A DNA stretch of 64,000 nucleotides from an uncultured Bacteroidota bacterium (lineage in GTDB: Bacteria > Bacteroidota > Bacteroidia > Bacteroidales > UBA12481), in assembly GCA_903851365.1 (NCBI GenBank), contig CAINOB010000002.1:12051-76050 (forward strand), in the 5' to 3' direction. Positions within the stretch are counted from its first letter, which is position 1. Every line of letters starts with the position of its first letter. Made by a program: the position numbers and the translations under genes. The notes below the pieces were generated by a model that did no database searches, was not told the DNA's origin, and saw only the letters and a list, made by a program, of their open reading frames with translations. Shown in pieces: positions 22,611 through 64,000 of the stretch.

Positions 22611-22739
22611 AGTTTTATATTTTTGACGTACAAATATATATTATTCATACGTCAATTTCAAATTTATTAGCTGGCATTGTTTGTTGCATATATGGAGATT
22701 TTAGACTAATTTTTGGCTATTAAATCTAAACTAAAAACC

Positions 22740-23588
22740 ATGTCAATAAAAGTAGGATGTTTTGCGTTGGTCAACCCGTTCAGCCTGCTCGAAGCACAGC
22801 TGGACCAGATCAAACAATGGGGTTTCAGCTGCGGCGACCTCACCGACAACTCGGATGGCGCCTGCCTGGGCGTTGAATACGGTTTCACCGCACTCGCCAG
22901 CCTTGATGCAAACCCATTCGATATCAAGCGACTGTTTGAAAGCCGTGGACTGATACTTTCCAGTGTTTGCGCTCACGCTAACCTTCTTGATCCGTCGGCG
23001 CCCTCTCGTTACGGAACTGCTCAGATCATCAAGGCGGTAAAACTGGCCGGTGCCATCGGGGTAAAACATGTGATCACGGCCGAAGGGGATCCCAGAACGC
23101 CTTTCGGGAAAAGTCTGACCATCGATGAAGCCATTTTCTCCATTGCCGAGAAATTGTATGAACCACTCAGGTTTGCTGAAGATTATGGCGTAAAGATCCT
23201 GATCGAACCGCATGGTCATATTTCGGACTCGGTGGAACTCATGGGCCGGTTGCTCAACAAGTGCAATTCCAAAGCCCTGGCTATAAACCTCGATACCGGA
23301 AATCTTTGGCTGGGGGGCGGTGATTCACTGGAAATGATTGAAAAATTCGGACCCTTGATCGAGCATGTTCACTGGAAGGATCTGCCAGCCGAAATGATTG
23401 AAAAAAGGGGCATCCAGTTTGGCTGCGGCATGTCGCTCACCGCCCTTGGTGAGGGTGTTATCGGCATTGAAGCCATATACAAGGCTCTGGTAAAATCGGG
23501 TTTCGACGGCTATTCGACCTTGGAAATTGCCGGGGAAGAGGCCGTTTTGAAGAGCTTTGAATATCTGAAAAAATTGGGTGCGAAATAG
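22740..23588 (+). CDS. Sugar phosphate isomerase/epimerase (xylose-isomerase-like TIM barrel) family protein
   Basis: About 280 aa with blocks typical of the AP-endonuclease-2/xylose-isomerase-like TIM barrel (KILIEPHG, NLDTGNLWLGG, HVHWKD, STLEI). The track start 22713 is TTG; the ATG is at 22740. No signal peptide. Confidence 0.7.
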   Translation: MSIKVGCFALVNPFSLLEAQLDQIKQWGFSCGDLTDNSDGACLGVEYGFTALASLDANPFDIKRLFESRGLILSSVCAHANLLDPSAPSRYGTAQIIKAVKLAGAIGVKHVITAEGDPRTPFGKSLTIDEAIFSIAEKLYEPLRFAEDYGVKILIEPHGHISDSVELMGRLLNKCNSKALAINLDTGNLWLGGGDSLEMIEKFGPLIEHVHWKDLPAEMIEKRGIQFGCGMSLTALGEGVIGIEAIYKALVKSGFDGYSTLEIAGEEAVLKSFEYLKKLGAK

Positions 23589-23600
23589 AAAGATTTACAA

Positions 23601-32150: not shown

Positions 32151-32154
32151 AGAA

Positions 32155-42445: not shown

Positions 42446-42447
42446 AC

Positions 42448-44838: not shown

Positions 44839-47318
44839 TATTGCTCTATGTTTTGAATATTGATAGTACCTGATTGTAAATCCTTTGCCCGGCATTGAAC
44901 GGATATCGTTCCTTTCCCTTTCGGACGGATAGTCAGCAGCAATCTTCCTTCGTAAGCTTCGCGTTTGTTTTGTTTGTACAATTCATGACTGAACTGGTTT
45001 CCCGAATCCAATCCGATCAATTCACCCGCGCCAGCTACATCAACAGTTATCTCGTTTTTTGCTAATGGACAGCGTGTGCCCTTTTCATCCTGGATCTCAA
45101 GGGTAAGAAAAACAAGTCGTTCGCTTTCCGGGCCATCGGATTTCCATTCCTCTTTTAAACCCAGTTTTTTTGGTTCACCCGCCGTTTTTAATGTATGGGT
45201 GGCGACTATCTGGTTTTTGTTAAAGGCTTTTGCAATCAGTTCACCCTGTTTATAATTAACAAGATAGATGGCCTGATAGGTATTTGGATTCACTGCCTTT
45301 TTCCCAAGGCTTTTACCGTTTTGATATAACTCAACTTTTTCAGTGTTGCTGTATACAAAAACCGTATCCACCTCCCCCGGATTAAAATTCCAGTGCGAGG
45401 CAACGTTGTAGCTGCGCCACTCGAAGTCGTCTTTTACTTTCAGGTTTACTGCGATGTGAACCATCGGTTTTTCCGACCAAAATGCCTGCCAGTAGTAATA
45501 CAAGGGTTTTTCGAAACCGGCGATATCAATCAGTCCCCATTCCCAGCCTCGACGGGGCCAGCCGAGCGCTTCTCCTAAATAATCTATCCCCACCCACAGG
45601 AACAGGCCGACAACATTTGGATTATCGCGCACAGCAAGCCAGTTTTCGAGAGTCAGGTAGTTCTCAGCGCCAAGCAGAATCCGGTTTGGATAGCGGGCAT
45701 GTTCTTCGCGATAATGCTCCTTAAAATACCGATCGGGATAATTATATCCGGCGACATCCATGGTGTCGAAAAATCCATTAGCATTTGCCCAGGGCGACCA
45801 ATCGCAAGTGGCTGTTATCATGCGGGTATTATCCTCCTCTTTTGCCCAATCGATAAGCTTTTTCAGGGTTTTGGGCCCATCAGGATATCGCTGGTCAGGC
45901 ACTTCATTTCCCACCGAATACATAAATACGGAGGGATGATTCCGATCACGCCTGACCATATCCTTCAAATCGGTTTCTGCCCATTGGTTGAAGAAAATGT
46001 GATAGGTGTATTTGTTCTTACCTGCCGGATCTTCCGTCTGGCCATAGTGCCAGGTATGGTTCCATTCATCAAAAGCTTCCGCCATCATATACATACCCTT
46101 TTCATCGCACACCTCAATAAAGGCAGGGTCAACCGGTCCGTGTGTGCGGATGGCATTGCAGCCCTGCGCCTTCAGCTTGTCAAGCCGGTATCGCCAAACG
46201 TCCTTGGGGACTGCGGTTCCAAAAGAACCGGCATCTTTGTGGAGGCATACCCCTTTAATAATCACTTTCTCTCCGTTTACAACCAGTCCCTGATCTTTAT
46301 TGAAAACAATAGTACGAATTCCCACTTTCTGCTGCTCAGTATCGACCAGGCGGTTCTCAATCCACAACTGAAGCTCCAGCGTGTAGAGATATGGGTTTTT
46401 ATCCGACCAAAGCACTGGATTTTTAGCTTCAATATTCAGGGTGGATTTTACCGATGTGTAATCGCTAAGGTCACAGCTATCGATGGCTTTAGTAAAAATG
46501 CCACCATCCCTGCCTTTCAGAAGTGCAACTATCCGGGCTTTTTTCAGCACTTTTTTCCATTCTTCAGGAAACCGCTGGAAATTAACTTTCATGCTCTCGG
46601 TATAATTGTTGGAAATTACCTCGCAATCTACCTTGAGCCTGGCAACGTTGCCATTTGCTGAAATGGTCCTGAAAAAGGTGCCGAAGGATTTAAAATGCTG
46701 CTGCCCGGTAATAAAAAGACGGACGTTCCGGTTAATTCCGGAACCGGTGTACCATCTGCAATTATTAATCAATGAATTATCCACCTTAACGGCAATCACG
46801 TTGGTTTTCCCATCATATTTTAAAAAGGGTGTTAAATCGTATTCAAAAGTGCTGAATCCATACGGACGGTTTCCCAGGTATATGCCATTCAGATATACCG
46901 ATGAGTTCATATAAACCCCATCAAACCTGATTTTAATCCGTTTCCCTTTTGAACCCTCCGGTACTACAAAATGCTTACGATAACAACCGATCCCATAAGG
47001 CAGATAGCCGCCTGATGCACCGCTTGGGTTTGCCTCCGCAAATTGTCCTTCTACCGACCAATCGTGAGGAACATCCAAACGACGCCATCCGGAATCATCA
47101 AACTCAGGGACGTAAAAACCAGGGGATTCGCCTAAATAAAATAGCCAGTCTGCATTAAAGTTCAGCTGCACATCCATCACGGGTTCAGCAATCACCTCTT
47201 TACCAGCAATTTTATTGCTCTTATCACGGAAAACATTTTCATCAACCTGTGAAAAAGCACCCTGGCAGATAAAAGACAGAAGTCCGAACAGCAAAATTAA
47301 TTTACGTGACCAGTTCAT
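44838..47318 (-). CDS. GH2 family glycoside hydrolase (beta-galactosidase/beta-glucuronidase type), secreted
   Basis: Signal peptide present. GH2 blocks WRRLDVPHDWS, VYLNG, IRTHGP and NHPSVFMYSVGNEV (acid/base Glu context). Confidence 0.85.
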   Translation of the reverse strand: MNWSRKLILLFGLLSFICQGAFSQVDENVFRDKSNKIAGKEVIAEPVMDVQLNFNADWLFYLGESPGFYVPEFDDSGWRRLDVPHDWSVEGQFAEANPSGASGGYLPYGIGCYRKHFVVPEGSKGKRIKIRFDGVYMNSSVYLNGIYLGNRPYGFSTFEYDLTPFLKYDGKTNVIAVKVDNSLINNCRWYTGSGINRNVRLFITGQQHFKSFGTFFRTISANGNVARLKVDCEVISNNYTESMKVNFQRFPEEWKKVLKKARIVALLKGRDGGIFTKAIDSCDLSDYTSVKSTLNIEAKNPVLWSDKNPYLYTLELQLWIENRLVDTEQQKVGIRTIVFNKDQGLVVNGEKVIIKGVCLHKDAGSFGTAVPKDVWRYRLDKLKAQGCNAIRTHGPVDPAFIEVCDEKGMYMMAEAFDEWNHTWHYGQTEDPAGKNKYTYHIFFNQWAETDLKDMVRRDRNHPSVFMYSVGNEVPDQRYPDGPKTLKKLIDWAKEEDNTRMITATCDWSPWANANGFFDTMDVAGYNYPDRYFKEHYREEHARYPNRILLGAENYLTLENWLAVRDNPNVVGLFLWVGIDYLGEALGWPRRGWEWGLIDIAGFEKPLYYYWQAFWSEKPMVHIAVNLKVKDDFEWRSYNVASHWNFNPGEVDTVFVYSNTEKVELYQNGKSLGKKAVNPNTYQAIYLVNYKQGELIAKAFNKNQIVATHTLKTAGEPKKLGLKEEWKSDGPESERLVFLTLEIQDEKGTRCPLAKNEITVDVAGAGELIGLDSGNQFSHELYKQNKREAYEGRLLLTIRPKGKGTISVQCRAKDLQSGTINIQNIEQ

Positions 47319-47329
47319 TTGGATTTGTA

Positions 47330-48973
47330 TTATTTCTCTAATCCCTGCTGGGTAACAATGGGAACATAACCTATCTCCAGCCCTTTTGGCGGGGTGACTA
47401 GCAGAGCCGGGTCAATTTCGGCCAATTTCCCAACCAAGGGTTTAGGAAGGTATTCCCGGTTCTTAGTCCAGTTCCGGTGAAGCAGTTCCACCCGCCTTTG
47501 CATTTCTTCACGCTCCGCTTTGGTCAGATCGGCGTTGAGCAAGGCAGGCTGGTCAGCGAACCGATACCAGTAGTAGGTTAACGTGCTGCCGTCTCCAAGT
47601 TTCACTTTGAACGGACCGGCTGCGGGGCCGGGGGTTTTCCAGCAACTCGTTTTTTCATCAGGAGTCACATAAGCCACAGGAGTGCGTGGTTCAGTATTGT
47701 TAAAGGTAACATTCTGAAGTCCGGTTTCAACCGGCACCTCTTTGGGCGACACGGCTATCCACTTACCAATGGTATCATTACCTTCTTTTACCAATTTATA
47801 ATATTCAGGAAGGGTTACAACAGAGCCGTTATCTGTTTTTCTCGTTGTGATAAGCTCACCTGACCAGCGGACCCTGAGGGTTGCCGAATCAGTGACATTA
47901 GCATCCATATAGGAAGTAATATTCAGTAAGGCACGTTTATTCTTGGGAATATGATCGCCATAAAGACTCCAGTTCGACCGGACCCCTTTTTGAAATTTCT
48001 GCATGGTAGCTCCTGCCAGATCAATGGTGCCATCAGCCTGTGCACCTCCTTTAAACCAGGCTTCCACTTTGTCCCAGAGCGCCTTCTTGTTGTATACCAT
48101 CAGACGGTGCAACAGATCTGAATTGCCATCGGCACCCAGGGGGTACTGTGTCGTAGCGATACGGACATAAATCTGGCCTTTAGAGTCGGTAGCTTCAGCC
48201 GAACGTATATGCTGTGTTTCCATCTGAAATGCCTTGTTGGCTTGTGTGGGGCGCTGATCGAGAAACATCCCGCTTAATTTGGGATTTTCAACGGTTGCCT
48301 GGGACCAAAAATAAGGGGTAAAGAAGGCAACCGGGCCCTTGAAATTCGCGGTATTTATAAACAGGGTCCAGCACTGATTCCCGGTAGGAACGTCGGTCCC
48401 GGCAGTGGTGGATTTAGGCTCCGTGAGCGGCAATGGGAGGTAACCGCTGCCAAACAATTCACCGCAAGTGCCCTGCTTCAGGTTTAAGCCATCGGGAGGC
48501 CATAGAAGCCAGGGACTCAGCTGAGCTGCTCCATATTTTCCTTTATCATTGCTCCAGTCTCTGCCTTGTCCGGCGCCAGGTCCATTAGCCCAACCGGCAA
48601 AGTTCAGCTGCACTCCGCCCATGATGAATTTTGGTGTTGCCGTGGCGTACTCTGTGTCGTTCCACCAGCCCAGACCTCCTTCAACATCGGTATAAAAATC
48701 CTTTTTTGTCAGAGGACTGTTATTCTGAGGAAACATCCACGAACCGAATAAGCCTGATTGAAAACTCCGGCCAGGATACTCTTTTACTAATGGAAAGGCG
48801 GCTGCATACATTGAGTAACCCGCATTGAAAGTGGTGTCAACTTTATCCACCTTCAAGATCATATACCCGCCGATATTGGCTTCGCGGATCTTGTTTTTTG
48901 TGGAGGCTTTATCCTGTGCCGAAACCATAGTGGTCAGCAGTAAGGCGATGATAATGTTAAGTAGGTATTTCAT
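47330..48973 (-). CDS. Uncharacterised secreted protein (family X), no T9SS CTD
   Basis: The ATG at 48973 gives the signal peptide MKYLLNIIIALLLTTMVSAQ; the track start 49051 would overlap the upstream gene. It is a close paralogue of 49008..50957 and ends ...GYVPIVTQQGLEK directly after the shared core. Confidence 0.7.
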   Translation of the reverse strand: MKYLLNIIIALLLTTMVSAQDKASTKNKIREANIGGYMILKVDKVDTTFNAGYSMYAAAFPLVKEYPGRSFQSGLFGSWMFPQNNSPLTKKDFYTDVEGGLGWWNDTEYATATPKFIMGGVQLNFAGWANGPGAGQGRDWSNDKGKYGAAQLSPWLLWPPDGLNLKQGTCGELFGSGYLPLPLTEPKSTTAGTDVPTGNQCWTLFINTANFKGPVAFFTPYFWSQATVENPKLSGMFLDQRPTQANKAFQMETQHIRSAEATDSKGQIYVRIATTQYPLGADGNSDLLHRLMVYNKKALWDKVEAWFKGGAQADGTIDLAGATMQKFQKGVRSNWSLYGDHIPKNKRALLNITSYMDANVTDSATLRVRWSGELITTRKTDNGSVVTLPEYYKLVKEGNDTIGKWIAVSPKEVPVETGLQNVTFNNTEPRTPVAYVTPDEKTSCWKTPGPAAGPFKVKLGDGSTLTYYWYRFADQPALLNADLTKAEREEMQRRVELLHRNWTKNREYLPKPLVGKLAEIDPALLVTPPKGLEIGYVPIVTQQGLEK

Positions 48974-49007
48974 TCGTAAATAATTTATTGTTTCAAGTGT
49001 AATTGGC

Positions 49008-50957
49008 TTATTCCGATTTAATAAACTTAATGAACTTTGAATAAACTCCATTGGTGAAATTCAGAAAATACAGACCATCTGAAAGAAACCTGATATCAAG
49101 CACTTCCCTGGTGTTGTACAATTTTACAGTCTGAATTATTTTCCCCGTTATATCCATTAATTGAAGTTTCGTATTGGTGTCGGGAACGGTCTGCAGTAAA
49201 ATGTTTAAGTAATGCGATGTCGGATTTGGATACACTTCAATTACCGGGGACTTGTTGAAGGCACTACGATCTGTAGAATTTACCTCCGATAATTCCTGAC
49301 GTATAACAATCGGAACATATCCAACTTCCAAACCTTCTGGTGGCGTGACTATCAGGGCGGGGTCAATATCCGCCAGTTTTCCAATCGTGGGTGGAGGCAG
49401 GTATTCACGATCCTTGGTCCAGTTCCGGTGCAGCAATTCCACCCTCCTTTGCATTTCTTCACGCTCCTCCTTGCTCAGGTCGGCATTGAGCAATGCAGGC
49501 TGGTCGGCAAACCGATACCAGAAGTAGGTTACCGTACTGCCATCCCCCAGATTCGCCTCAAACGGTCCGGCTACCGGACCCGGGGTATTCCAGCAACTTT
49601 CTCTGTTTGCCGGAGTAATGTACGCCACAGGGGTTCTTGCGGCAGTATTGCTAAAACTAACATTCTGGAGTCCGGTTTCTGCCGGCACCTCTCCGGGTGC
49701 CACTGCAATCCACTCACCAATGGAGTCATTCCCGGTTTTTACCAGTTTATAATATTCGGGAAGAGTCACCACACTACCGTTGCCTGTTTCTCTCCGTGTG
49801 ATAAGGTCACCTTCCCAACGAACCCTCAAAGTTGAATTATCGGTGACATTTGCATTCATATAAGAAGTAATATTCAGATAAGCACGTTTATCCGCAGGGA
49901 TATCATCAGCATACAAACTCCAGTTTGACCATACTCCTTTATTGAATTTCTGATTATAAGCCCCGGTGAGATCAATGGATCCATCAGCCGGTGCACCTCC
50001 CTTAAACCAGGCATCGACCTTGTCCCACAGCGCCTTCTTTTTATAGACCATCAGGCGGTGCAACAGATCCGAATTTCCATCGGAATCCACAGGATACTGT
50101 GTCGGAGCGACACGTGCATAGGTCTGTCCCTTGGAATCAATAGCTTTAGCGGAACGGATATTTTGCGTTTCCATCTGAAATGCTTTGTTGGCTTGAGAGG
50201 GACGCTGATCAAGAAATAACCCGCCCACTCGTGGATCCTTTGCGGATGCCTCGGTCCAGAAGTAAGGGGTGAAGAATGCAACCGGGCCCTTGAAATTCCC
50301 GGTGTTAAGGAACAGCGTCCAGCATTGGTTTCCGGTAGGAACGGCAATACCTGCCGTAGTGGTTTTCGGCTCAGTAAGCGGCAAAGGCAGATAGCCACTG
50401 CCAAACAATTCACCGCAAGTGCCCTGCTTGAGGTTTAAGCCATCGGGAGGCCACAATATCCATGGACTCAGCTGAGCCACACCATATTTCCCATTTGGAT
50501 TGCTCCAGTCTCTGCCCTGTCCGGCACCAGGCCCGTTTGCCCATCCGACAAAGTTCAGCTGTACTCCACCCATAATAAATTTTGGTGTTTCTGTGGCATA
50601 TTCTGTATCGTTCCAGCAGCCAAGACCTCCTTCAATATCCGTATAAAAATCCGTCACCGGTAATGGGCCATCGTTTTGCGGAAACATCCAGGTACCAAAC
50701 AATCCCGATTGAAAGCTCTTGCCCGGATACTCCTTTACCAAAGGCCATGCTGCAGCATACATCGAGTAACCCGCATTGAATGTTGTGTTCACGCTCGCTA
50801 CCTGCGCAACCATATACCCGCCAATATGGGCATCGCGAATCGATACCACTCCGGAGGTTTTCTCCTGTGCCGTTACAAAGGGGGCTGTCAGAAGGCAAAG
50901 GATAATGGCGAATAAAGATTTCAGAATGTTTTTTTTCGTCATAGGGTTCAGGTTCAT
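49008..50957 (-). CDS. Uncharacterised secreted protein (family X) with T9SS C-terminal sorting domain
   Basis: Signal peptide present. The core is collinear with 47330..48973. The last 77 aa (49008..49241: IEVYPNPTSHYLNILL...GLYFLNF...KFIKSE) are a T9SS CTD. The start overlaps the upstream stop by 4 nt. Confidence 0.7.
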   Translation of the reverse strand: MNLNPMTKKNILKSLFAIILCLLTAPFVTAQEKTSGVVSIRDAHIGGYMVAQVASVNTTFNAGYSMYAAAWPLVKEYPGKSFQSGLFGTWMFPQNDGPLPVTDFYTDIEGGLGCWNDTEYATETPKFIMGGVQLNFVGWANGPGAGQGRDWSNPNGKYGVAQLSPWILWPPDGLNLKQGTCGELFGSGYLPLPLTEPKTTTAGIAVPTGNQCWTLFLNTGNFKGPVAFFTPYFWTEASAKDPRVGGLFLDQRPSQANKAFQMETQNIRSAKAIDSKGQTYARVAPTQYPVDSDGNSDLLHRLMVYKKKALWDKVDAWFKGGAPADGSIDLTGAYNQKFNKGVWSNWSLYADDIPADKRAYLNITSYMNANVTDNSTLRVRWEGDLITRRETGNGSVVTLPEYYKLVKTGNDSIGEWIAVAPGEVPAETGLQNVSFSNTAARTPVAYITPANRESCWNTPGPVAGPFEANLGDGSTVTYFWYRFADQPALLNADLSKEEREEMQRRVELLHRNWTKDREYLPPPTIGKLADIDPALIVTPPEGLEVGYVPIVIRQELSEVNSTDRSAFNKSPVIEVYPNPTSHYLNILLQTVPDTNTKLQLMDITGKIIQTVKLYNTREVLDIRFLSDGLYFLNFTNGVYSKFIKFIKSE

Positions 50958-52981: not shown

Positions 52982-53152
52982 AATTGGTTGATTACCGTGC
53001 TAAAGGTAGCAGGCAAATTGGAAATAGATGTGTATCTGATTGTCAGGACCAGGCACTAACTTGGCAGGTCTATTTGTCAAGACCCGCTTAGGCTGCATGT
53101 TTTTGTATATCCGGTCTTTAGTTATATTTAATACTTGAATCAGACAGATAAA

Positions 53153-55656
53153 ATGAACCACCGAATCTCCAAATGGTACTACTTCACGCTTCTTATAATC
53201 GCTGTTTTTTTTGTTACATGCAGTGTTGAGGAATATTCAGATATTACTATTTATGGGGCAAAATTGAACGCTAAGGCCGATCCGATCGGGGTTGATACGG
53301 AGAAGCCGGTTTTTTCCTGGAAGCTGAAGTCTGATAAACGAAATCGTTGGCAGTCAGCTTATCAGATAATTGTATTGGATGCAAATACCAGGGATACGTG
53401 CTGGAATTCAGGCGAAATCCATTCAGATAACAACATCATGGTACCATATGCCGGTACCCCGTTAAAGGGGGTCAGCCGGTACCTGTGGAAGGTCAGGATC
53501 CGGGACCAGAGAGGGAAAGTCAGCCGCTGGTCGGGAGAAAACCATTTTGCTACGGGCTTGATGGAGGAAACTGACTGGAAGGGGGTTTGGATCAGTTCCC
53601 GGGATCCTGCATATTCTCCGTTTTTTACCAAGGAAATAAACATGGAGAAGGTTCCAGATGAGGCGACCGTTTTTGTGAATTGCCAGGGATATTTTGAGTT
53701 ATACATCAATGGAGAGAAAATCGGGAAGGATCTCCTTTCGCCTGCAGTCGCATCTGATTTCCGGAACTAGCTCGGTCATCGTTCTTACAGATACTACCTG
53801 GCAAACCGGCAACAGTAATATCAGCCAGATAGGAAGCTGGCGTTGGAATCAGATGGGCGGAGAACTGATCGATGACCGGATTCCTATGCATGAATGGTAT
53901 AATCCGAATTCCGGCAGGGATCTTAAAAACGCCATTCGGATTACAAAACCGCCGGCATCTACCCGGTCGCAGGTTTGCGGAACCAATATCATTTCCGACT
54001 CTATTCAGGTAAAAACCATCACAGCAATCAGCGACAATACCTGGCTGATCGATTTTGGCGAGAATTTCACCGGCTGGATGAGGATGAAAATCAGCAACCA
54101 GGCAGCGGGAGATACGATCGATTTTATCTATTCGGATTTTTGCAATAAAAAACCGAATAAAAAATCAAGATATAACTGGGATTTCGGGAATGCATCCATT
54201 GATCAGCGTGACGCTTACGTTTGTTCTGATTCTAAAAGCGGAGTGTTCTGTCCGAAATTCAATTATCATGCTTTCCGGTATGTGATCGTCCAGGGATTGA
54301 AAAGAGAGCCCCGGGCCGGTGACATTTCCGGGTATATGATTGAACCGGATCTGGACAAATCGGGTTTCTTTACGTGTTCCGACCCCGACCTGAATGCCAT
54401 TTTTGAACTCAACAGATATACCTTTCGTTGACTGTCAGCTGGCGGATATTATGTGGATTGCCCCCACCGTGAGCGCCTGGGGTACGGCGACGGACAGGTG
54501 GCAGTTGAAACAGGCATTTACAATTTTAACCTGCTGAATTTCTATAAAAAATGGGCCGGAAACTGGAGATCCGCGCAGGACACTACCGGTGAATTTCCCA
54601 ATACCGCCCCATCGCCCTACAGTGCTGGCGGAGGGCCCGGCTGGGGTGGCACTGGCGTTGTCCTTCCCTGGAAGATATTCAGATATTATGGAGATACGGC
54701 CTTTTTGCGCTCCTCCTATCCGTCCATGGCAAGGTATATCGGCTTTCTGGAAATGAAAAGTAAAGATGGCGTTCTGCAATATTATGGAGATGAAACCTGG
54801 GGATTCATCGGGGATTGGGTCCCTCCCGGCAGGGGAATGGATTCGAACGACAAGGTGGGTAAGACCGAAAAGGAACTGTTCAACAATTGCTACAAGGTAT
54901 ATCTGTATAAGATTCTGGGCGAATGTGCCGGGGTTCTGGGTATGGCCGCCGACAGCATTAAATATGAAGACCTGGCTGAAACGCTTAAGGGAAAAATCAA
55001 CTCGGGTTATTTCGATGCTGCCAAAGGTACCTATGCCAACGGGGAACAGCCCTATCTGACGTTTCCCCTGTTGATGGATATACCCGGGGGAAAATGACAG
55101 AGACCATGTTCTGGCTAACCTGGAGAATGAAATACGGGTCACCAACACCGGGCACCTGAATACGGGCATGCTGGGGACTTATTTCATGCTGCAATATCTG
55201 GCCGGAGCGGGTCGTTCCGACCTGGTTTACCTGATGATGAAACAAAAAACGTATCCGGGCTGGGGGTATATGATTGCCAGTGGAGCAAATACCTGCTGGG
55301 AACAATGGATTGGATACTGGTCAAACATTCATTCAGTGGCATTCCGGCATTTGCTTATTTCTCCGCAGCTCACTGACCTGATTGATGCCCAGAGAACCGA
55401 ATTTGATTCCCCGAATGGGAAATTGGTCGTTGCCTGGAATCATCAAAAAGGCGGAGGCCTCGAAATGGAGATCGGGATTCCGGTAAACACAAAGGTTGAC
55501 ATTATTTTACCTGTTTCCGCAGACGAAACGGTTTGGGAATCTGATCAACCAGTGACCGGAAATGGCGAAATCAGCATCATTTCAAGTCAACCCGGCAAGT
55601 TGGGATTGCGCCTTGCATCAGGTAGTTACTTGTTTAAAATCAGGAAAACAAGATAA
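53153..55656 (+). pseudogene. Decayed GH78 alpha-L-rhamnosidase gene (frameshifts, internal deletion, in-frame stop)
   Basis: Four consecutive track ORFs (53135.., 53694.., 54453.., 55168..) carry GH78 pieces in order. These are the N-domain KADPIGVDTEKPVFSWKL...SAYQIIV, YFELYINGEKIG, the catalytic-domain MDCPHRERLGYGDGQ and the C-terminal CWEQW. The frame changes near 53700-53770 and 55097-55168. There is an in-frame TGA at 54429-54431, and roughly 80 aa expected after LSPAV appear to be missing. Confidence 0.8.
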
Positions 55657-56376: not shown

Positions 56377-59300
56377 TCAGAGTTTTCTTATCCAGATATT
56401 CCTGTAGCTGACTGCACTATTATGATCCTGCAGCATTAAGGGCAGTTCAGTTTCTGAAAGACTAAATTCCCGATTACTTGAAGTCGTAGGCTCTTTTACC
56501 TCAACATGGTTTTGCACCAATACTCCGTTATGGAACACTGTGAAGGAACCCGGTTCAATCAGTTCTTTATTTTCATTGAATTTCGGGGCCATGAATATTA
56601 TATCATAAACCTGCCATTGATCTGGTTCAAGTGAAGCATTAACGAGGGGTGGGAAATTACCGTAAAATGCTGCAGCCTGACCGGTAGGATATGTTTTATT
56701 ATGGTATGAATTCAAAACCTGAATTTCATATTTACTCATGAGGTATATGCCCGAATTGCTGCAACTCTGACCTGTTTTCCCTTTCAAAACATCTTCCATA
56801 GCTGCTTTCCACTCGACATGCAACTGACAATCGCGGAATTTCTGTTTTGTTATGATATCCTTGGTCCCGGGTTTTACCGTAAAACTATCACCTGAAGCAA
56901 TCCATTCTGGGGCACCACCCGTCTTTGCACTAACAAAATTGATAAGGGTATCCTTGTCAAACAAAATGATCGCATCTGAAGGTGGAGCTCCATTTTTGCC
57001 CGGAGTTACTATCGACGGCTCAATCAAGTCGGGATACCACTTGCTGATCAGAGTCTTTTCCTCTTTGTTTAACAGGTTGATATCAATAGGTTTATCCTGT
57101 TCGCGGATTCCTTTTTGGTTCAGGCGGTTCATCAAACTCCAGTTACGGCTGTGCTTACCAGGTTCAGGATCAGCAGGTTCCTGGGCTTTAAGATCATAAC
57201 GGGTAAAGTCGATTACCTTCCCGGGTGTATTATTTTGCCAATCCTGCAATATTGCAAGTCGGAAATCCTTATTCATAAACCATTGGATCTCCAGCTCAGG
57301 CTCTGATCCGCAAACTCCTGTGCCACGCTGGACGAATTGATAGTTGAGGTTATTATTATTCTTGTATTGCTCACGCCAGAGCATTCCAAATTCCCCCATT
57401 GTGATACATTGCGCATCAGGCCAGCGTCGTCTCATTTCACTGAACCAGATCAGCATGCCTTCCATGCCGTTCCGACCTTTATAGCCATAAATTTTGTGTG
57501 CTTCAACCAGACCTAATTCCCAGGTGCAGGTTACCCACGCAAAATTATTTATTTCGAAGCCCTTGTCGAAATGGGCCGCTGTAACGGCAAGCATTTCTTG
57601 AGTGCCCCTCTCGGTCCCCAATCTGATGACCGTTTCTATCGGACCAACGCCTTGCCGGCTGCCGCACCATTCGCCATCAATAGTTCTTCCGCCAGGGTAT
57701 CTTGCACTCAGGAAATCCATGGTCCAGCCATCCAGGTTAACGCAATCGATTAAGTCATCCTTACCCTGGGCAGGTTTTAAAAAATGTTCTTTTGATGGGT
57801 AATAAGGATAGGATATCGAGCCGTCGCCATCACCGTTGTCAATTGCATACTGACTCCAGATATTGCCCTGGCAAACATGAATCCCTTCCACATCGGCAAG
57901 ATATCTGAGATTTTCCGCGGATAGAAAACCTGCTATCACACTCAGGGGACGGTATCCACCTCCAACCATCTCCGAAACCATTTGTAACCCATCATGCAGG
58001 TCGCGGTTAACCTGTTCACGGGTATTATACATGTTGGCAAAATACCCGCCTGGTATAAATGTAATTTCATCGCCAAACTTTTCATGATAGGAAACTATCA
58101 GCTTCTTCAGATCACGATAGGCAGGGTGTTCATCCTTGAGCGCCAACCAGCTGAAGGCCCAGGTAATCCGGGCACCCGGCCAGCCTTTTTCCACGGTTTC
58201 CCTGAAAATACGAGCTCCCTCTGATGAGTGAATACTCGATTCATCTTCGCCAGCGGTTACCTCGCGTGAGGTTTCAATCTGGTTAACACGCACAACTGTA
58301 TTAAAAGTAAAATAGCGGTGCCCTAAAAATTGGTTTTCAGTTTCCTTCTCCATTCCGAGCATCGTTTCTGCAAAGGCCTTTCCAAGGCGAACAAAGGTTT
58401 TACCACTGCCCAGATAGTGGTATTCAGCGTTAGATGCGCCTCTTTTCCAGATCGCCTTTTCTTTTCTTGTTAGTCCATTCTTTGTAAAACCATACTTTTC
58501 GCGCTGCTTTCTGGCCTCTTCCTGTGTCATTTTGCCCTGCTTAACCTGCCATTTCCATTCGTTTGTCAGCCGTTGCTTCCAGTAAATATCGCTAAGCGCG
58601 AGTTCATAAAAGGGGCCACTATCGACCGCTTTCACATTTCCACGATAGGGTTCCGCTACCTTGCTATCATATTGCTCTACCGCAGCGAATTGTGTCTTGC
58701 GAAAATCAGAGACAGGCAGAGTTTTGTCGAATTTCCGACTATCCGGATCCGTACCATAGACACCCAGAATACCTACAATAAATGGCAGATGTGGCTTATC
58801 AAATTCTTTGCGCACATCGCTGATAAAATGGATCATATTCTCGGTATACTGATTGATATAGTATCGGTTACACATATCATTCCAGCCCTGAAACCAGACG
58901 AATCCTGCCAGTTCATAGCCCTGGGCCGGATCGTAGCCTGGAACGATTTTACTTATGCTCTTTGCGCTATTCAGTGTGGCCCTGATGTCGCGGATCATTT
59001 CGCGGTAATAATGTCCCACCGCCTCCTTTGAAGGAGCATTTCCCTGGGCCTTCTCTTTCGGACTGGGCTCATAAGGTCCGGCGCTGGGCGGGCGAAAGTC
59101 CACCGCCAGTGATTTTCCGCCCCAGGCGGTTTTGATAATCAGGACAGGCTCATCGTGCGCTTTATCCATATAGAGACCAAAAGCATATTCCGGCCCAATT
59201 TTCTCATGGTCAAAACCATAGCCCACCTTGACCTTACCCTGCAGAACGGTATCACGCTCATCTTGTTGAGTGAAGTAGGTTATCCAGGAATGGTCACAGA

Positions 59301-59517
59301 CAACAGGATGGCCTTTCTGGTCCAGTACCATGCTTAAAAGTGAAGCAGTCTTTGGATCGTCACCAATAGCCTTAAATGTGCTGAGGTGGGCTGAGCCCTG
59401 CATGTTCGACTGTCCGGCCATGATATACACTTTCAGGGGCTTCCCGACAGCCATCGCCGTGTTGCAAACTACCATTGCCATGACCGCAGTCATCATTATT
59501 CTTGCTATTGATTTCAT
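56377..59517 (-). CDS. Tri-domain secreted protein: SASA-type esterase + unrecognised ~400-aa central domain + DUF1080 (3-keto-disaccharide-hydrolase-like) domain
   Basis: aa ~25-390 are SASA-like (VYIMAGQSNMQG, VWFQGWND). I do not recognise aa ~395-800. aa ~835-1046 fit DUF1080 (WIASGDSFTVKPG..., NSGIYL..YEIQVL, ...VSYRNIWIRKL). Confidence 0.7.
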   Translation of the reverse strand: MKSIARIMMTAVMAMVVCNTAMAVGKPLKVYIMAGQSNMQGSAHLSTFKAIGDDPKTASLLSMVLDQKGHPVVCDHSWITYFTQQDERDTVLQGKVKVGYGFDHEKIGPEYAFGLYMDKAHDEPVLIIKTAWGGKSLAVDFRPPSAGPYEPSPKEKAQGNAPSKEAVGHYYREMIRDIRATLNSAKSISKIVPGYDPAQGYELAGFVWFQGWNDMCNRYYINQYTENMIHFISDVRKEFDKPHLPFIVGILGVYGTDPDSRKFDKTLPVSDFRKTQFAAVEQYDSKVAEPYRGNVKAVDSGPFYELALSDIYWKQRLTNEWKWQVKQGKMTQEEARKQREKYGFTKNGLTRKEKAIWKRGASNAEYHYLGSGKTFVRLGKAFAETMLGMEKETENQFLGHRYFTFNTVVRVNQIETSREVTAGEDESSIHSSEGARIFRETVEKGWPGARITWAFSWLALKDEHPAYRDLKKLIVSYHEKFGDEITFIPGGYFANMYNTREQVNRDLHDGLQMVSEMVGGGYRPLSVIAGFLSAENLRYLADVEGIHVCQGNIWSQYAIDNGDGDGSISYPYYPSKEHFLKPAQGKDDLIDCVNLDGWTMDFLSARYPGGRTIDGEWCGSRQGVGPIETVIRLGTERGTQEMLAVTAAHFDKGFEINNFAWVTCTWELGLVEAHKIYGYKGRNGMEGMLIWFSEMRRRWPDAQCITMGEFGMLWREQYKNNNNLNYQFVQRGTGVCGSEPELEIQWFMNKDFRLAILQDWQNNTPGKVIDFTRYDLKAQEPADPEPGKHSRNWSLMNRLNQKGIREQDKPIDINLLNKEEKTLISKWYPDLIEPSIVTPGKNGAPPSDAIILFDKDTLINFVSAKTGGAPEWIASGDSFTVKPGTKDIITKQKFRDCQLHVEWKAAMEDVLKGKTGQSCSNSGIYLMSKYEIQVLNSYHNKTYPTGQAAAFYGNFPPLVNASLEPDQWQVYDIIFMAPKFNENKELIEPGSFTVFHNGVLVQNHVEVKEPTTSSNREFSLSETELPLMLQDHNSAVSYRNIWIRKL

Positions 59518-59521
59518 CTTT

Positions 59522-61252
59522 TTATTGGCTTATTGTGAACCATACCCTGATGTTACACGGAGGTTGCCAGGTGGTTTCACTGATTGGTCTCATAACCACC
59601 GGATATTTCCCGAACATATCAGAATGAATATGCTGCATAACCAGATAGGTGTTTTTTAAGTTTGAACCCGACGGTGCCAGCTCAGGAGTGAATTTCTGGG
59701 GATCCCGCAATTCAATATAATTACTGTAGTTTGGTTCAGAATCAAAGAATGGTTGAAAGATACCATCCACCGACATCAGGTAAGGACCATAAAAAAGTGC
59801 TGCCTGCATTTTGCCGGAAATTGGAAATGCAATCTCCTTCTTGTCCTTATTAGCCCATTTCATTACATAGTCCAATGCAATATCGATCTGGTCGCCAACT
59901 CGCAGGTCTTGATCAATAATCAGGTAATCACCTTCCTGCTTTATTCGAAGCTTTTTCCCTGCGAAAGTTAAGTCAACTTGCCTGGCCCAGCTGGGTTTTC
60001 GCACCGCCAAACGTGAACTTATCCCGGCTTTTATAACACGAATCTTAAATTGGTTGGAGTGGTCTTTTACTTGTTCCGCTGTTAAACGGAGCTCGTTATC
60101 GGTATAATCTCCGTCGAAAAAGAGGTTGAATTGAACCGTGTTTTCCTTCCGTGTAAAAACATTTTCTTTCGTTTCATGCAGGGCGCGCAAGGCATGGAAA
60201 TTGCAACACCACCACGACCGGGCAATATTATTATCATTGACGAAGCCCATTTCCGGATCAAGGCTCCTGTGACCGAAATCGCCGGTTTCATACTGGTTTG
60301 CAAACAAGTGGTTAATGAGACAATGCTCTGATTTTTCCAGGTATTTTGTTTCGCCGGTTGTTTTCCATAAGCGAAGAGACAGCATGATAAAATCAGCTTC
60401 AGCACAACCTTCATCGCGTGCCTCTTTTGAAACTCCCATGGTTCCGAAATATTCAGGAACGCCGCCAAAAATCAGATATTCCGGCGAACGAACCAGCTCC
60501 TCGTAACGGTCCGTCACAAATTTTAGCTGTTCTGTTTTACCTGTCCGATCGTAAAGCATCAGGGTGCCCAACAACGTATTCAGGTATCCATGGCTGTGTT
60601 GTTGCCCTGGTGGAGGAAGCAAGGGGAATACAGAGGAGGCGGTTTGCAGGTATTTTCCATCTTTGGTTTCATCCCAAAGCAACACCAATCCTTCCATCAG
60701 CTGGGTGAAACAAATGTAACCCATGTAATCTTTATTCTTCAGTCGCTCCACCACTTGCGGGCTCATACAGTTATCAGCAATTCCAATGATGAAATCCCCC
60801 AGTTTTCTCGCTGCAGCAAGTACTTTGGGCTGATGATCCATTTGATAATATCTCATTAGGCCAACCAGCAATCGACCGTTTCCCCAAAGCAAAGCCATAT
60901 GCGGTCCAGCCAGTTTTTCAGCATCAAACACAAGATCAGGATTTCCAAAACGACCGTCCTGATGCTGGTATTGAAGAGCTTCATCCATCAGTTTATGAAT
61001 GTCGATCGGATTGTTTTCCACCGGGTAGGAGGAAAAAACATCGAAATAGCGCCCTGAAATATCCCCGCTGAAATCGGTAAACCGACGTTTGAATTCTGGC
61101 TTAAGCGAGAGGTCTGCCAGAATAAAATCAGAAGACATTTGAGGTGTATTTCCAAACATTATCCGGTCGGTCACCATTTTGATCCGCTTATTGATTTGTC
61201 CAACGGCAGGTAATACCATAAAAACGGCGAGTAGGAAAAAGATCTTTTTCAT
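59522..61252 (-). CDS. GH127/GH146-like (DUF1680) six-hairpin protein, secreted
   Basis: Signal peptide present. E-x-C (DEGCAEADF), the TGETKYLEKSEHCLINHLFANQ block and the CC motif (SWWCCNFHALRAL) parallel the GH127 catalytic-centre arrangement. It is shorter and more divergent than 828..2681. Confidence 0.55.
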   Translation of the reverse strand: MKKIFFLLAVFMVLPAVGQINKRIKMVTDRIMFGNTPQMSSDFILADLSLKPEFKRRFTDFSGDISGRYFDVFSSYPVENNPIDIHKLMDEALQYQHQDGRFGNPDLVFDAEKLAGPHMALLWGNGRLLVGLMRYYQMDHQPKVLAAARKLGDFIIGIADNCMSPQVVERLKNKDYMGYICFTQLMEGLVLLWDETKDGKYLQTASSVFPLLPPPGQQHSHGYLNTLLGTLMLYDRTGKTEQLKFVTDRYEELVRSPEYLIFGGVPEYFGTMGVSKEARDEGCAEADFIMLSLRLWKTTGETKYLEKSEHCLINHLFANQYETGDFGHRSLDPEMGFVNDNNIARSWWCCNFHALRALHETKENVFTRKENTVQFNLFFDGDYTDNELRLTAEQVKDHSNQFKIRVIKAGISSRLAVRKPSWARQVDLTFAGKKLRIKQEGDYLIIDQDLRVGDQIDIALDYVMKWANKDKKEIAFPISGKMQAALFYGPYLMSVDGIFQPFFDSEPNYSNYIELRDPQKFTPELAPSGSNLKNTYLVMQHIHSDMFGKYPVVMRPISETTWQPPCNIRVWFTISQ

Positions 61253-61258
61253 GACTAT

Positions 61259-62623
61259 TTATCCGATATTCCAACCTGCCCTGAATTCGGGCTTTATTAA
61301 TGAATTTGCCTGTTCGAGGTTTGTTATTTTCATGCTGTCTTTATCCCACTTCAATTCCTGGTTTCGGTACAATGAAGCGGCTGTTCCCAATAATACGGTT
61401 TCGGTGAGTGGCCCGCCGTAATTGAAATTCGCGCTGGCTGGTTTCCCTGTTTTTATGGCTTCCAGCCAGTCGGCATGATGGCCCTTGCTTCGTTCAATCA
61501 GTTGCGGAGGTGTTCCGGCCTGCTGGTTTTTATCATTGAGCAGGACTTTAAATCCAGTGGCACCGTGAGAACCGTGGATGATGATGCCCTTTTCGCCGAT
61601 CAGCAGAGCTCCGCAGGTGTCCTCATATTTTAAATCCCTGAGCCTGTCGTCGTTCAGGGGAAGCAAGCCTCCGTCGTACCAGGTGAGTTTCACGGGCGGC
61701 TGATTCTCCCTTGCCGGGAACTTATAGGTGATGATTGATGCGGTAGCGTAGGTATCGTATTTGACATCAGGAAGCAGGTTTGAAGTGCTGGCGATCACAC
61801 TGTCAGGACTTCCCAGATCCAATGCCCAAAATGCCGGATCAAGGGTATGGCACCCAAAATCGCCCAATGCACCGCAGCCAAAATCGATAAACCCACGCCA
61901 TTTCATCGGAAGATAATCAGGCTGGTAGGGCCTGTTCTGCGCCGGACCGAGCCATAGGTCCCAGTTCAGCTGCCGTGGGATTTTATAATCTCCGGTTGGC
62001 CGGGCGATGCCATGGGGAAATGAAACGGAGCCGCCTCCGGCTGGCCGGTCGCACCAGGCATGAACCTCGGTGACCTTGCCAATGGTTCCTGCCTTGATAT
62101 GCTCATAAAACTGGCGGATGCTATCCCACGAATGCCCCTGATTTCCCATCTGTGTTTGTACCTTGTATTCCTTTGCCAGCCTGGTGATTTCCCTGACTTC
62201 AAAAACAGAGTGTGCCAGCGGCTTTTCACAATAGACATGCTTGCCCATTTTTATGGCCATTGTGGCTATCACCGCATGATTGTGGTCGGGAGTGGAAATA
62301 ACGACCGCATCGATATCCTTCTGCTTTTCGAGCATCTCCCTGAAATCCTTGTATCGCTTGGCTTTGGGATAAGCATCGAACGATTTTTGCTGGCGCTCTC
62401 TCCAGTCCACATCACACAAGGCAACGACATTCTGGTCTTGCAACGCCTTTAAATTACTGCCTCCTCTCCCTGCAATCCCTACAAATGCAATATTCAGTTT
62501 ATCAGATGGCCATACCACTTTTTCATTTTTCTTTTCACCGGGCGTACAGGAAGCTGATCCGAGTACCAGGGCTCCTACGGATCCTATGGAAATCGTTTTT
62601 GTAAATTCTCTTCGGGAGGTCAT
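61259..62623 (-). CDS. Gfo/Idh/MocA family oxidoreductase with TAT signal (periplasmic)
   Basis: MTSRREFTKTISIGSVGALVLGSASC is a TAT-type signal. Rossmann motif NIAFVGIAGRGGSN. The EKPLA block is typical of the family. Confidence 0.8.
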   Translation of the reverse strand: MTSRREFTKTISIGSVGALVLGSASCTPGEKKNEKVVWPSDKLNIAFVGIAGRGGSNLKALQDQNVVALCDVDWRERQQKSFDAYPKAKRYKDFREMLEKQKDIDAVVISTPDHNHAVIATMAIKMGKHVYCEKPLAHSVFEVREITRLAKEYKVQTQMGNQGHSWDSIRQFYEHIKAGTIGKVTEVHAWCDRPAGGGSVSFPHGIARPTGDYKIPRQLNWDLWLGPAQNRPYQPDYLPMKWRGFIDFGCGALGDFGCHTLDPAFWALDLGSPDSVIASTSNLLPDVKYDTYATASIITYKFPARENQPPVKLTWYDGGLLPLNDDRLRDLKYEDTCGALLIGEKGIIIHGSHGATGFKVLLNDKNQQAGTPPQLIERSKGHHADWLEAIKTGKPASANFNYGGPLTETVLLGTAASLYRNQELKWDKDSMKITNLEQANSLIKPEFRAGWNIG

Positions 62624-62765
62624 GGTTAGAGTTTTAGTTTATCGGGTTCAAGATAGTACACGTATCGGATATCTGTATGTATCCAATTGGTTGGATTGGG
62701 TACTAACTTGTTTTACTTTGGAAGTAATTGCCAAAATCCGAACTTCGATGTAAAAATATCTTAAT

Positions 62766-64000
62766 ATGCGTGATTCGAAATTCAGCAGCAACCTGCTATT
62801 CCTGTTCCCGATGATATTTCTGGGAGCCTGCACGGGGAAAATTGTTAAAAGGCCGAATTTCCTTATTCTGATTGCAGATGATCAGCGATGGGACCAGTTG
62901 AGCTGTGCCGACCAACCGATTATCCCGGAATTGAAAACCCCGAATATCGACAAGTTGGCAGGCAGGGGAGTCTACTTCAGGAATGCTTTTGTAACCTCTC
63001 CCGTCTGTGCCGTTTCGAGGGCAAGCATCATGACCGGAAGATATGCCAGTACGCATAAGATGAACCATTTTAACACCCCGTTTGCTCCGGATGTCATCGC
63101 AAAAACTTTTCCTGCCTTATTACACGACAATGGATACACGACTGCGATACTCGGAAAATGGGGCATAGGCACGGAAGGCACCGCAGGGATTTTCGACCTT
63201 TTCAATGCCTGGGCTGACCAGGGAAGCTACTTTCATGACACCGACAGCGGGAAGGTCCATAATGAGGAATGGCTGGCCATCAAAGCCCGGGAGTTCCTCA
63301 AATCCAGCACCACCGATAAACCGTTCTGCCTCACCGTCTGCTTTAAATCGCCACACCATCCCTATCAGCCTGACCCGCGCGACAAGGATCTTTTCAAAGA
63401 CGTGATCATTCCCAAAAGAGCGATGGATACTCCTGAAAGCTACCAGGCACTTTCGCCGGCCGTGATGGAAAAATCATTGAACCGCTGGTGTTATTTTGAT
63501 GAGAGAAAGGATTCTGCAACCAAAGAAAATTTCGAAAAGAATTTCCTGAGATGTGTTGCAAGTTTGGACCGCGCGGTAGGAAATGTCGTGCAAAGCCTTC
63601 AGGATCTGAAGCTTGATAAGAATACCGTAATCATATACCTGTCAGATAACGGCTATATGTGGGGTGAGCATGGTTTAGGCGGAAAGTGGTTATTATATGA
63701 AGAATCAATCCGTGTGCCGTTGATTATTTACGAGCCTGGTATCCCCGCTAAATTGAACGGTGTGAAGCTTGACGAACTTGCATTGAATATTGATATTGCC
63801 CCCACAATACTGGATTTGGCAGGCATTCCTGTTCCGGATGTCATGGATGGGATGAGCTTATCCCCCTTTCTCAGAGGAAAGGATGCTCCAGGCAGGACAG
63901 ATTTTTTCATGGAGCATGTTGAGGTTATTAAGGTCGAAACTCCGATCCCCGACAGCAGGGGGGTGCGCTCGAAGGAATGGAAATATTTACGCTACGTTAA
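62766..64000 (+). CDS. Sulfatase family lipoprotein (3' end outside window) with unusual C-A-V-S-R active-site motif
   Basis: It is missing from the ORF track because it has no stop in the window. My translation from the ATG at 62766 is MRDSKFSSNLLFLFPMIFLGACTGK...NFLILIADDQRWDQ...VTSPVCAVSRASIMTGRYA...YLSDNGYMWGEHGLGGKW.... The frame is open to nt 64000. The minus-strand track ORFs here are antisense artefacts. Confidence 0.8.
   Translation, partial: MRDSKFSSNLLFLFPMIFLGACTGKIVKRPNFLILIADDQRWDQLSCADQPIIPELKTPNIDKLAGRGVYFRNAFVTSPVCAVSRASIMTGRYASTHKMNHFNTPFAPDVIAKTFPALLHDNGYTTAILGKWGIGTEGTAGIFDLFNAWADQGSYFHDTDSGKVHNEEWLAIKAREFLKSSTTDKPFCLTVCFKSPHHPYQPDPRDKDLFKDVIIPKRAMDTPESYQALSPAVMEKSLNRWCYFDERKDSATKENFEKNFLRCVASLDRAVGNVVQSLQDLKLDKNTVIIYLSDNGYMWGEHGLGGKWLLYEESIRVPLIIYEPGIPAKLNGVKLDELALNIDIAPTILDLAGIPVPDVMDGMSLSPFLRGKDAPGRTDFFMEHVEVIKVETPIPDSRGVRSKEWKYLRYV

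Follow-up and report, generated by a model that had tools for sequence, protein, structure and literature searches.

An oxidise-eliminate-hydrate route of glycoside cleavage has been described in gut bacteria, where it acts on disaccharides, thioglycosides and drug-like glycosides (bioRxiv 10.1101/2024.03.25.586180). The dehydrogenases AL3/BT3 are exported through the twin-arginine translocation (TAT) pathway, bind nicotinamide adenine dinucleotide (NAD) tightly, oxidise the 3-OH of the glycoside and are recycled through reduction of the 3-keto sugar product; AL3 depends on the 3-OH and 4-OH only and by itself carries out just the oxidation, and DUF1080 proteins serve as the 3-keto-glycoside lyases/hydratases (bioRxiv 10.1101/2024.03.25.586180). 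TAT export is also recorded for AL3 together with BT2158 (bioRxiv 10.1101/2024.03.25.586180; PMC8121099). Here we analyzed a related locus in a stretch of 64,000 nucleotides (nt), hereafter the window, from an uncultured Bacteroidales bacterium of lineage UBA12481 (assembly GCA_903851365.1, contig CAINOB010000002.1, positions 12,051 to 76,050 of the forward strand). Three adjacent minus-strand genes at 56377..62623 encode exported enzymes. Our confidence is evenly balanced that the product of gene 1 and the DUF1080 domain of gene 3 act in oxidative cleavage of glycosides while the other parts assist. The reading is based on the domains that were identified, the signals for export, the conservation of catalytic motifs and gene neighbourhoods that recur in other genomes.

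Gene 1 (61259..62623, 454 amino acids (aa)) encodes a Gfo/Idh/MocA oxidoreductase that is exported by TAT and belongs to the AL3/BT2158 family of glycoside 3-dehydrogenases. Gene 2 (59522..61252, 576 aa) encodes an exported two-domain protein resembling glycoside hydrolase (GH) family 127, and gene 3 (56377..59517, 1046 aa) an exported protein of four modules, namely a SASA esterase, DUF3863, DUF3864 and DUF1080. The coordinates of the open reading frames (ORFs) leave 6 nt between genes 1 and 2 and 4 nt between genes 2 and 3, matching the original prediction made from the sequence, and we infer from these gaps that the three genes may be co-transcribed. Signal peptides were read from the translations of all three. 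The domains named in the prediction were recovered by profile search, Pfam finding Gfo/Idh/MocA, the catalytic and middle domains of GH127, SASA and DUF1080. The exact gene 1 protein was present on 12 metagenome contigs, another, independent assembly from this species carried an identical 1046-aa ORF of gene 3, and the four-module architecture was also found in P0001 (90% identity) and in L003, a lake-derived metagenome-assembled genome (L numbers denote the loci compared). An assembly or frameshift artefact in gene 3 was ruled out by the same ORF in independent assemblies and by relatives of 88-92% identity.

The gene 1 product matched the Pfam domains GFO_IDH_MocA (E-value 2.8e-19) and its C2 domain (1.2e-20). 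Its N-terminus, MTSRREFTKT, fits the pattern S/T-R-R-x-F-x-K, and the twin-arginine signal peptide read from the sequence (MTSRREFTKTISIGSVGALVLGSASC; 62546..62623, minus strand) ends in a possible lipoprotein cysteine. The conservation set for this gene comprised 117 homologues with identities of 52% or more, 110 of which keep the RR-x-F-x-K motif. The Pfam match and the conserved motif bear out the earlier description of a periplasmic Gfo/Idh/MocA dehydrogenase. The best solved relatives were PDB 8tdf (4e-95) and 8tdh (2e-93), identical to gene 1 at about 45% of 387 aligned positions; other Gfo/Idh/MocA structures matched at 1e-14 or worse, in the Rossmann part only. The two entries carry essentially one sequence, which we took to be AL3 because, with the numbering shifted uniformly by 29, every AL3 active-site residue named in the preprint falls on a residue of the same type. 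The 8tdf match and that to NCBIfam BT_2158_fam ('glycoside 3-dehydrogenase', 2.8e-133) tie gene 1 to the family of oxidation-assisted cleavage, as had been proposed. Residues Q162, R193, D255 and H259 of gene 1 are the counterparts of AL3 Q161, R192, D248 and H252 and were conserved in 115-117 of the 117 homologues. At the position of AL3 W195 gene 1 has a Phe, F202, with six inserted residues (AGGGSV) just before it, and at that of Y349, the 2-OH ligand, a His, H353.

As predicted, gene 3 ends in a DUF1080 domain (3keto-disac_hyd; 56386..56973, minus strand; aa 849-1044; Pfam 4.9e-33). The domain is of the 4QHZ subtype, PDB 4qhz being its nearest solved relative (2e-43), and DUF1080 has the fold of a GH16-like jelly-roll. 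The motifs NSG, Y-E-x-Q, Y and L-Q-x-H were invariant in six DUF1080 relatives, one of them from a canonical cluster. When a sequence taken from a canonical cluster was used as a bridge, a partial alignment resulted in which BT2 residues N134, E164, Q166 and Y190 corresponded to NSG, Y-E-I-Q and F-Y of the window domain; BT2 Q273 and H275 are probably matched by its L-Q-D-H motif. We regard the domain as a candidate 3-keto-glycoside lyase/hydratase.

Relatives of gene 1 were repeatedly found near DUF1080 genes. An orthologue of 81% identity (L086) stands after four sulfatase genes and is followed by a standalone DUF1080 gene 56% identical to the window domain, and orthologues of 79% (L054) and 75% (L065) adjoin DUF1080 genes of 57% and 36% identity, respectively. 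The standalone DUF1080 genes at these three loci belong to the subtype of the window. A relative of 54% identity lies in a canonical cluster with the order Gfo, TIM barrel, two DUF1080, Gfo, Gfo, TIM barrel (L091), and one of 67% adjoins a second Gfo gene and an exported TIM (triosephosphate isomerase) barrel gene amid GH106, GH78, GH28 and sulfatase genes (L089). Another, 66% identical, stands between SASA and GH127-family genes (L090), and an orthologue of 89% is placed two genes away from a DUF3863/DUF3864 gene that stands alone (L087). At L007, L074, L075 and L080, a TAT-type Gfo gene is the direct neighbour of the DUF3863 gene, and a Verrucomicrobia genome (L066) carries a Gfo-DUF1080-DUF3863 string. 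In 80 metagenome loci, a Gfo gene was directly upstream of 6 of the 47 4QHZ-type DUF1080 genes with at least 1.5 kb of upstream sequence; with a background Gfo density of about 1 per 100 kb, this is roughly a tenfold enrichment. On contig CAZEKJ010000023.1 (L007 and L005), two copies of a DUF3863-DUF1080 gene lie about 16 kb apart, one preceded by a GH127-like gene and the other by a TAT-type Gfo gene whose product is 27% identical to that of gene 1.

The SASA domain of gene 3 (58756..59436, minus strand; aa 28-254), an SGNH-type carbohydrate acetylesterase domain, matched Pfam PF03629 at 5.8e-22 with 78.9 bits against a cut-off of 24.8 bits. It bears the GQSN serine motif (AGQSNMQG, residues 33-40) and forms part of a module that takes up roughly the first 395 aa of the protein; standalone homologues of this module (about 390 aa) are 64-73% identical. 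The prediction had described gene 3 as an esterase/DUF1080 fusion. Both domains are present, but a core of 435 residues between them had been overlooked, and it is the largest and best-scoring part of the protein. This core consists of DUF3863 (PF12979; 57274..58326, minus strand; aa 398-748; 1.6e-103), with a conserved DNGDGDGS loop, and DUF3864 (PF12980; 57025..57261, minus strand; aa 753-831; 6.7e-31), the constant C-terminal companion of DUF3863 that is nearly always paired with it in homologues. PDB 3lm3, which also covers DUF3864, matched the core at 1.1e-143. An AlphaFold (AF2) model of the core reached a predicted template modelling (TM) score (pTM) of 0.82, and Foldseek matched it to 3lm3 ('putative glycoside hydrolase/deacetylase') with TM 0.88; remote matches with TM 0.36-0.44 were GH57, CE4-like deacetylases, GH38 mannosidases and the deacetylase domain of NDST1. 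DUF3863 is accordingly modelled as a (beta/alpha)-barrel of the glycoside hydrolase/deacetylase fold, in a metal-enzyme superfamily. An alignment of 20 homologues had about 90 invariant columns, many of them Asp, His and Glu.

The DUF3863/DUF3864 module is unusually well conserved, with 60-87% identity in most homologues and few clusters at 50% identity (402 matches, many of them fragments). Modules 70-81% identical to that of the window are encoded at loci of Pirellulales, Sedimentisphaerales, Verrucomicrobia and Chitinophagaceae. Its fusion partners were DUF1080, SASA, GH106, GH78, GH95, GH92, GH38, GH63-like, GH43, sulfatase, pyrroloquinoline quinone (PQQ)-propeller and amidohydrolase domains. 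Fusion of DUF1080 with DUF3863 was seen in at least 13 homologue clusters; the recurrent partner of DUF1080 is thus the DUF3863/DUF3864 core and not the esterase, to which the prediction had seen it welded. A sulfatase gene directly adjoined the DUF3863 gene in 18 of 80 species-representative loci. A literature search on DUF3863, DUF3864 and 3LM3 found no relevant paper. With a solved structure, more than 10 kinds of fused glycan-active domains and frequent sulfatase neighbours, DUF3863/DUF3864 is an attractive target for functional work and the by-product of this analysis with the most potential.

Gene 2 matched the GH127 catalytic domain PF07944 (3.5e-12; 46.5 bits against a gathering cut-off of 24.9 bits) and the GH127 middle domain PF20736 (3.4e-08), and the Pfam scan did not detect the C-terminal beta-sandwich domain PF20737. 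Matches to GH127/GH146 beta-L-arabinofuranosidases in the PDB were weak (5e-07 to 1e-04) and aligned the E-x-C and C-C motifs: E281-G-C283 and C349-C350 of gene 2 align with E-T-C and C-C of PDB 8k7y. Among 115 homologues, E267, D280-E281-G282-C283, W347-W348-C349-C350 and H353 were at least 97% conserved. E267 is invariant, lies 14 residues ahead of E281 and is, by sequence alignment, a candidate acid/base Glu. In HypBA1, the Zn site is E338/C340/C417/C418 with a Cys nucleophile, and the acid/base Glu lies 16 residues from the Zn-site Glu. These features agree with the predicted Cys/Zn GH127-like protein, and gene 2 probably encodes a Cys-nucleophile glycosidase with a Zn site that looks catalytically competent. 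Against the NCBIfam model of aceric acid hydrolase it scored 44.5 bits, with a cut-off of 950 bits; the protein belongs to a two-domain subfamily of its own of about 590 aa. A second, more typical GH127-like gene lies at 828-2726 (minus strand; 632 aa; PF07944 9.3e-39, with a trace of PF20737), and its product is 23% identical to that of gene 2.

The order of the reactions and the roles of the SASA, DUF3863 and GH127-like parts are proposed as follows. Gene 1 would be folded with bound NAD, exported via TAT, and oxidise the 3-OH of the sugar at the non-reducing end. The DUF1080 domain of gene 3 would then eliminate the aglycone from the 3-keto-glycoside and hydrate the glycal. Gene 1 would finally reduce the 3-keto sugar, giving a net redox-neutral 'hydrolysis', as for AL3/AL2 and BT2158/BT2157. 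SASA and DUF3863/DUF3864 may strip substituents that block the oxidative step, or cut neighbouring linkages, and gene 2 may act as an ordinary Cys-nucleophile glycosidase on another linkage of the same glycan. The prediction had coupled the SASA and GH127-like parts to the keto-chemistry itself; we found nothing that links either of them to it mechanistically.

Several observations weigh against this reading. In the nearest other species (L001, L002/L005 and L004), the GH127-like gene lies directly before a DUF3863-DUF1080 gene with no adjacent Gfo gene; the L001 pair is 87% and 89-93% identical to the window pair. The order Gfo, GH127-like, gene 3 is specific to the window species, and the three genes are not a conserved unit. 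More than 80% of the 4QHZ-type DUF1080 genes have no adjacent Gfo gene. With 445 bits, gene 1 falls under the 750-bit equivalog cut-off of BT_2158_fam, and its homologues carry Phe at the W195 position in 114 of 117 cases and His at the Y349 position in 116 of 117. The DUF1080 subfamily of gene 3 differs from the characterised BT2157. Phmmer searches from this domain did not reach BT2/AL2, a six-sequence profile reached the BT2/AL2-type structure 8tda at 0.0035 in the N-terminal part only, and BT2 E103 and K245 had no clear counterpart. One DUF1080 protein has been reported as an endo-glucanase/xanthanase (PMC10881899). No exported TIM-barrel lyase was found in or next to the three-gene set. 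A promoter and terminator scan gave no signal above shuffled controls; the sigma-70 consensus that it used does not fit Bacteroidota. Because of the bit score and the changed W195 and Y349 positions across homologues, gene 1 is placed by its sequence in a sister subfamily of the characterised AL3/BT2158 enzymes with a consistently different sugar pocket, and its substrate probably differs from theirs.

The absence of the Gfo gene beside the conserved pair would be expected if the three genes were neighbours in one glycan region without coupling, with a separate linkage or substituent as the target of each enzyme, DUF1080 serving DUF3863/DUF3864 as a GH16-like hydrolase or a lectin-like module and the Gfo gene having been recently rearranged and having other partners. 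In relatives, the GH127-like/DUF3863 pair comes after genes for a LamG protein, a protein with a tail of the type IX secretion system (T9SS) and a 546-aa protein. The LamG (675 aa) and T9SS-tail (649 aa) genes of the window stand several kb from its pair, and its gene order therefore looks rearranged; gene order around the Gfo orthologues is heavily shuffled as well, and at 65% identity a GH127-like relative has lost its pairing with the DUF3863 gene. The frequent DUF1080-DUF3863 fusion, the jelly-roll fold and the reported endo-glucanase fit such an arrangement too. However, standalone DUF1080 genes of the window subtype adjoin Gfo orthologues, and four further loci, drawn from three phyla, have a Gfo gene next to DUF3863; both associations are well in excess of the background density of Gfo genes. 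The channel residues NSG, E-x-Q, Y and Q-x-H are also kept, which would be needless in a mere binding module. We consider an uncoupled neighbourhood rather unlikely. The adjacency to DUF3863 can be read in another way, with DUF3863/DUF3864 as the catalytic partner of the oxidoreductase instead of or besides DUF1080, for example as a metal-dependent 3-keto-glycoside lyase replacing the TIM barrel or as a remover of a C3-blocking substituent, so that Gfo, DUF1080 and DUF3863 would make up a novel three-part form of the pathway. The Gfo-DUF3863 contacts at L007, L074, L075 and L080 and the L066 string span Bacteroidales, Verrucomicrobia and Pirellula, at L035, L049, L054, L065 and L087 a DUF3863 gene is found no more than 10 kb from a Gfo orthologue, and the three-gene set has no exported TIM barrel; the metal-enzyme (beta/alpha)-barrel, with its DNGDGDGS loop and its numerous invariant positions occupied by Asp, His and Glu, would suit such a role. 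On the other hand, a Gfo gene is adjacent in only about 5 of about 65 evaluable DUF3863 loci, whereas sulfatases are in 18 of 80. Fusions to many exo-glycosidases and sulfatases better fit a substituent-removing or hydrolytic accessory, and the proteins of related fold act as hydrolases and deacetylases rather than as lyases. We hold this arrangement to be distinctly improbable. If it were true, Bacteroidota, Verrucomicrobiota and Planctomycetota could dismantle sulfated and acetylated glycans that resist ordinary glycosidases.

Gene 1 might also feed no lyase at all and be a periplasmic dehydrogenase of free sugars or cyclitols, like glucose-fructose oxidoreductase or inositol dehydrogenase, or a GH109-like NAD-dependent glycosidase. 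Matches to inositol dehydrogenase, glucose-fructose oxidoreductase and GH109 were obtained at 1e-7 to 1e-14, confined to the Rossmann part, and the sugar-binding residues of gene 1 differ from those of AL3. The AL3 match, however, is full-length and 80 orders of magnitude better, and the counterparts of the catalytic AL3 residues D248 and H252 and of R192, the O5/O6 ligand, are invariant. AL3 itself needs only the two hydroxyls and alone only oxidises, and gene 1 relatives lie in clusters with lyase genes. This explanation therefore appears very improbable, and its stand-alone GH109-like form was ruled out by a match of 2e-07 restricted to the Rossmann part. We retain oxidative cleavage by gene 1 and the DUF1080 domain as the working interpretation.

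The sole TIM barrel of the window, a xylose-isomerase-like ORF at 22713..23588 (plus strand; AP_endonuc_2, 3.1e-30), had been put forward as a partner with the coordinates 22740..23588. It lies 33 kb from the three-gene set and has no signal peptide, and it was read as cytoplasmic. In the PDB it came closest to Art22 and IolE and not to AL1/BT1, and in NCBIfam to IolE, with a score below cut-off; it shared 23-28% identity with the exported TIM barrels encoded at L089 and L091. Since it lacks a signal peptide and is IolE/Art22-like, it is no credible partner of a periplasmic system, and we rejected it as the lyase. A spacer of 12 nt separates the gene from the GH106 rhamnosidase gene downstream of it, with which it possibly forms a pair (22713-26459, plus strand).

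A sulfatase gene is encoded divergently next to gene 1, in line with the prediction (62766..64000, plus strand; Pfam Sulfatase 9.1e-50). Only part of it lies within the window, whose end it crosses; where other assemblies cover this locus, it encodes 460 aa. The intergenic region of 142 nt (62624..62765) is presumed to be a regulatory region shared by gene 1 and the sulfatase gene. An inverted repeat of 10 pairs (GTATCCAATTGGTTGGATTGGGTAC) lies within this spacer at 62679-62703 and may be an operator. At the other end, a SOUL-family gene is convergent on the 3' end of the three-gene set. Just past the end of the window, upstream of the sulfatase gene and beside it, L083-L085 carry an islet of genes for Mrr restriction, DUF559, Bro-N and a ParD antitoxin.

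Around the three-gene set, the window encodes GH115, two GH95-type, GH106, GH2, a second SASA protein, sulfatases, LamG and T9SS proteins. Because of the nearby GH115, GH95, GH106, GH2, SASA and sulfatase genes, the content of this region of a freshwater/sediment Bacteroidales points to a sulfated, acetylated glycan rich in rhamnose/fucose (deoxyhexose) as the target. A GH78 alpha-L-rhamnosidase gene at 53135-55656 (plus strand) is split into at least four ORF pieces (205, 240, 214 and 162 aa). Gene calls from an independent assembly for this species gave the same pieces, and the gene therefore looks like a real pseudogene and not a sequencing error. The G+C content is 0.54-0.56 at 32001-34000 and 40001-44000, against about 0.43-0.48 elsewhere in the window. 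These stretches cover a GH95 gene (32155-34491) and, within 40433-44895, a SASA/GH2N gene and an 815-aa gene; the rises may reflect horizontal acquisition. Neither the 815-aa ORF (42448-44895, minus strand) nor a 573-aa ORF (47330-49051, minus strand) in this block of glycan enzymes had a Pfam match. In relatives L001 and L092, the 546-aa gene between the T9SS-tail and GH127-like genes has no Pfam match either, and the 573-aa ORF of the window likewise follows the T9SS-tail gene, a likeness of position. Elsewhere, a HipA-type toxin kinase gene is present at 35699-36949 (minus strand), and a single ORF at 5005-6828 (plus strand) joins Dak2/FakA-like and DegV domains as a fatty-acid kinase A-B fusion.

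Of the predicted oxidative operon, the AL3-like nature of gene 1 and the standalone DUF1080 genes beside its orthologues were upheld, while the trio is not conserved. The chemistry and the family roles of Gfo and DUF1080 are already published, and the locus is a variant rather than new chemistry. New here are a distinct dehydrogenase subfamily, another DUF1080 subtype fused to an esterase and DUF3863/DUF3864, the lack of a TIM-barrel lyase and the sulfatase-rich setting. The locus suggests that environmental Bacteroidales use a sister subfamily of the dehydrogenase with an altered pocket amid complex-glycan machinery rich in sulfatases and rhamnosidases. If this were confirmed, the substrate range of the pathway would widen to decorated polysaccharides.

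Compared with known systems, gene 2 shares PF07944, PF20736 and the Glu-x-Cys and Cys-Cys motifs with GH127 (the beta-L-arabinofuranosidase HypBA1 and the aceric acid hydrolase BT1003) and GH146 and has a candidate for their acid/base Glu, but the similarity is very weak and the C-terminal beta-sandwich is missing. PDB 3LM3 (BDI_3119 of Parabacteroides distasonis) has the same two-domain module as the core of gene 3, with 48% identity and TM 0.88 to it; 3LM3 is a standalone structural-genomics protein, whereas the module of the window is fused. PDB 4QHZ, the nearest solved relative of the DUF1080 domain, is an uncharacterised 'putative glycosyl hydrolase'. THTE_1561 of Thermogutta terrifontis, a DUF1080 endo-xanthanase/lichenase, indicates that direct hydrolysis of glucans may be within the reach of a small DUF1080 protein. 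The NAD-dependent glycosidases GH109 and GH4 use the same C3 oxidation, elimination, hydration and reduction, and GH109 is likewise TAT-exported with the Gfo/Idh/MocA fold; these enzymes, however, perform all steps in one active site, and gene 1 resembles GH109 in the Rossmann part only (2e-07).

LacABC/ThuAB with DUF1080 (the Agrobacterium 3-ketosucrose pathway; Caulobacter CCNA_01705; PMC9007349) shows the same periplasmic C3 oxidation followed by a DUF1080 enzyme, but its oxidant is a membrane-bound flavoprotein/cytochrome complex, whereas that of the window is a soluble NAD-bound Gfo/Idh/MocA protein. The AL1-AL5 clusters of Alistipes and BT2156-BT2160 of Bacteroides thetaiotaomicron share with the window the TAT-exported Gfo 3-dehydrogenase, the DUF1080 module and export of all components (bioRxiv 10.1101/2024.03.25.586180; Liu et al. 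2021, PMC8121099), and relatives of gene 1 are found in such canonical clusters. Unlike these clusters, the window has no exported TIM-barrel lyase, second cytoplasmic oxidoreductase or SusR/DUF6377 regulator nearby. Its DUF1080 is of the 4QHZ type and C-terminal in a 1046-aa esterase-DUF3863/DUF3864 protein, and its dehydrogenase has Phe for Trp plus an insertion and His for Tyr. The setting of the window is a region rich in sulfatase, GH106, GH95 and GH2 genes, not a disaccharide operon.

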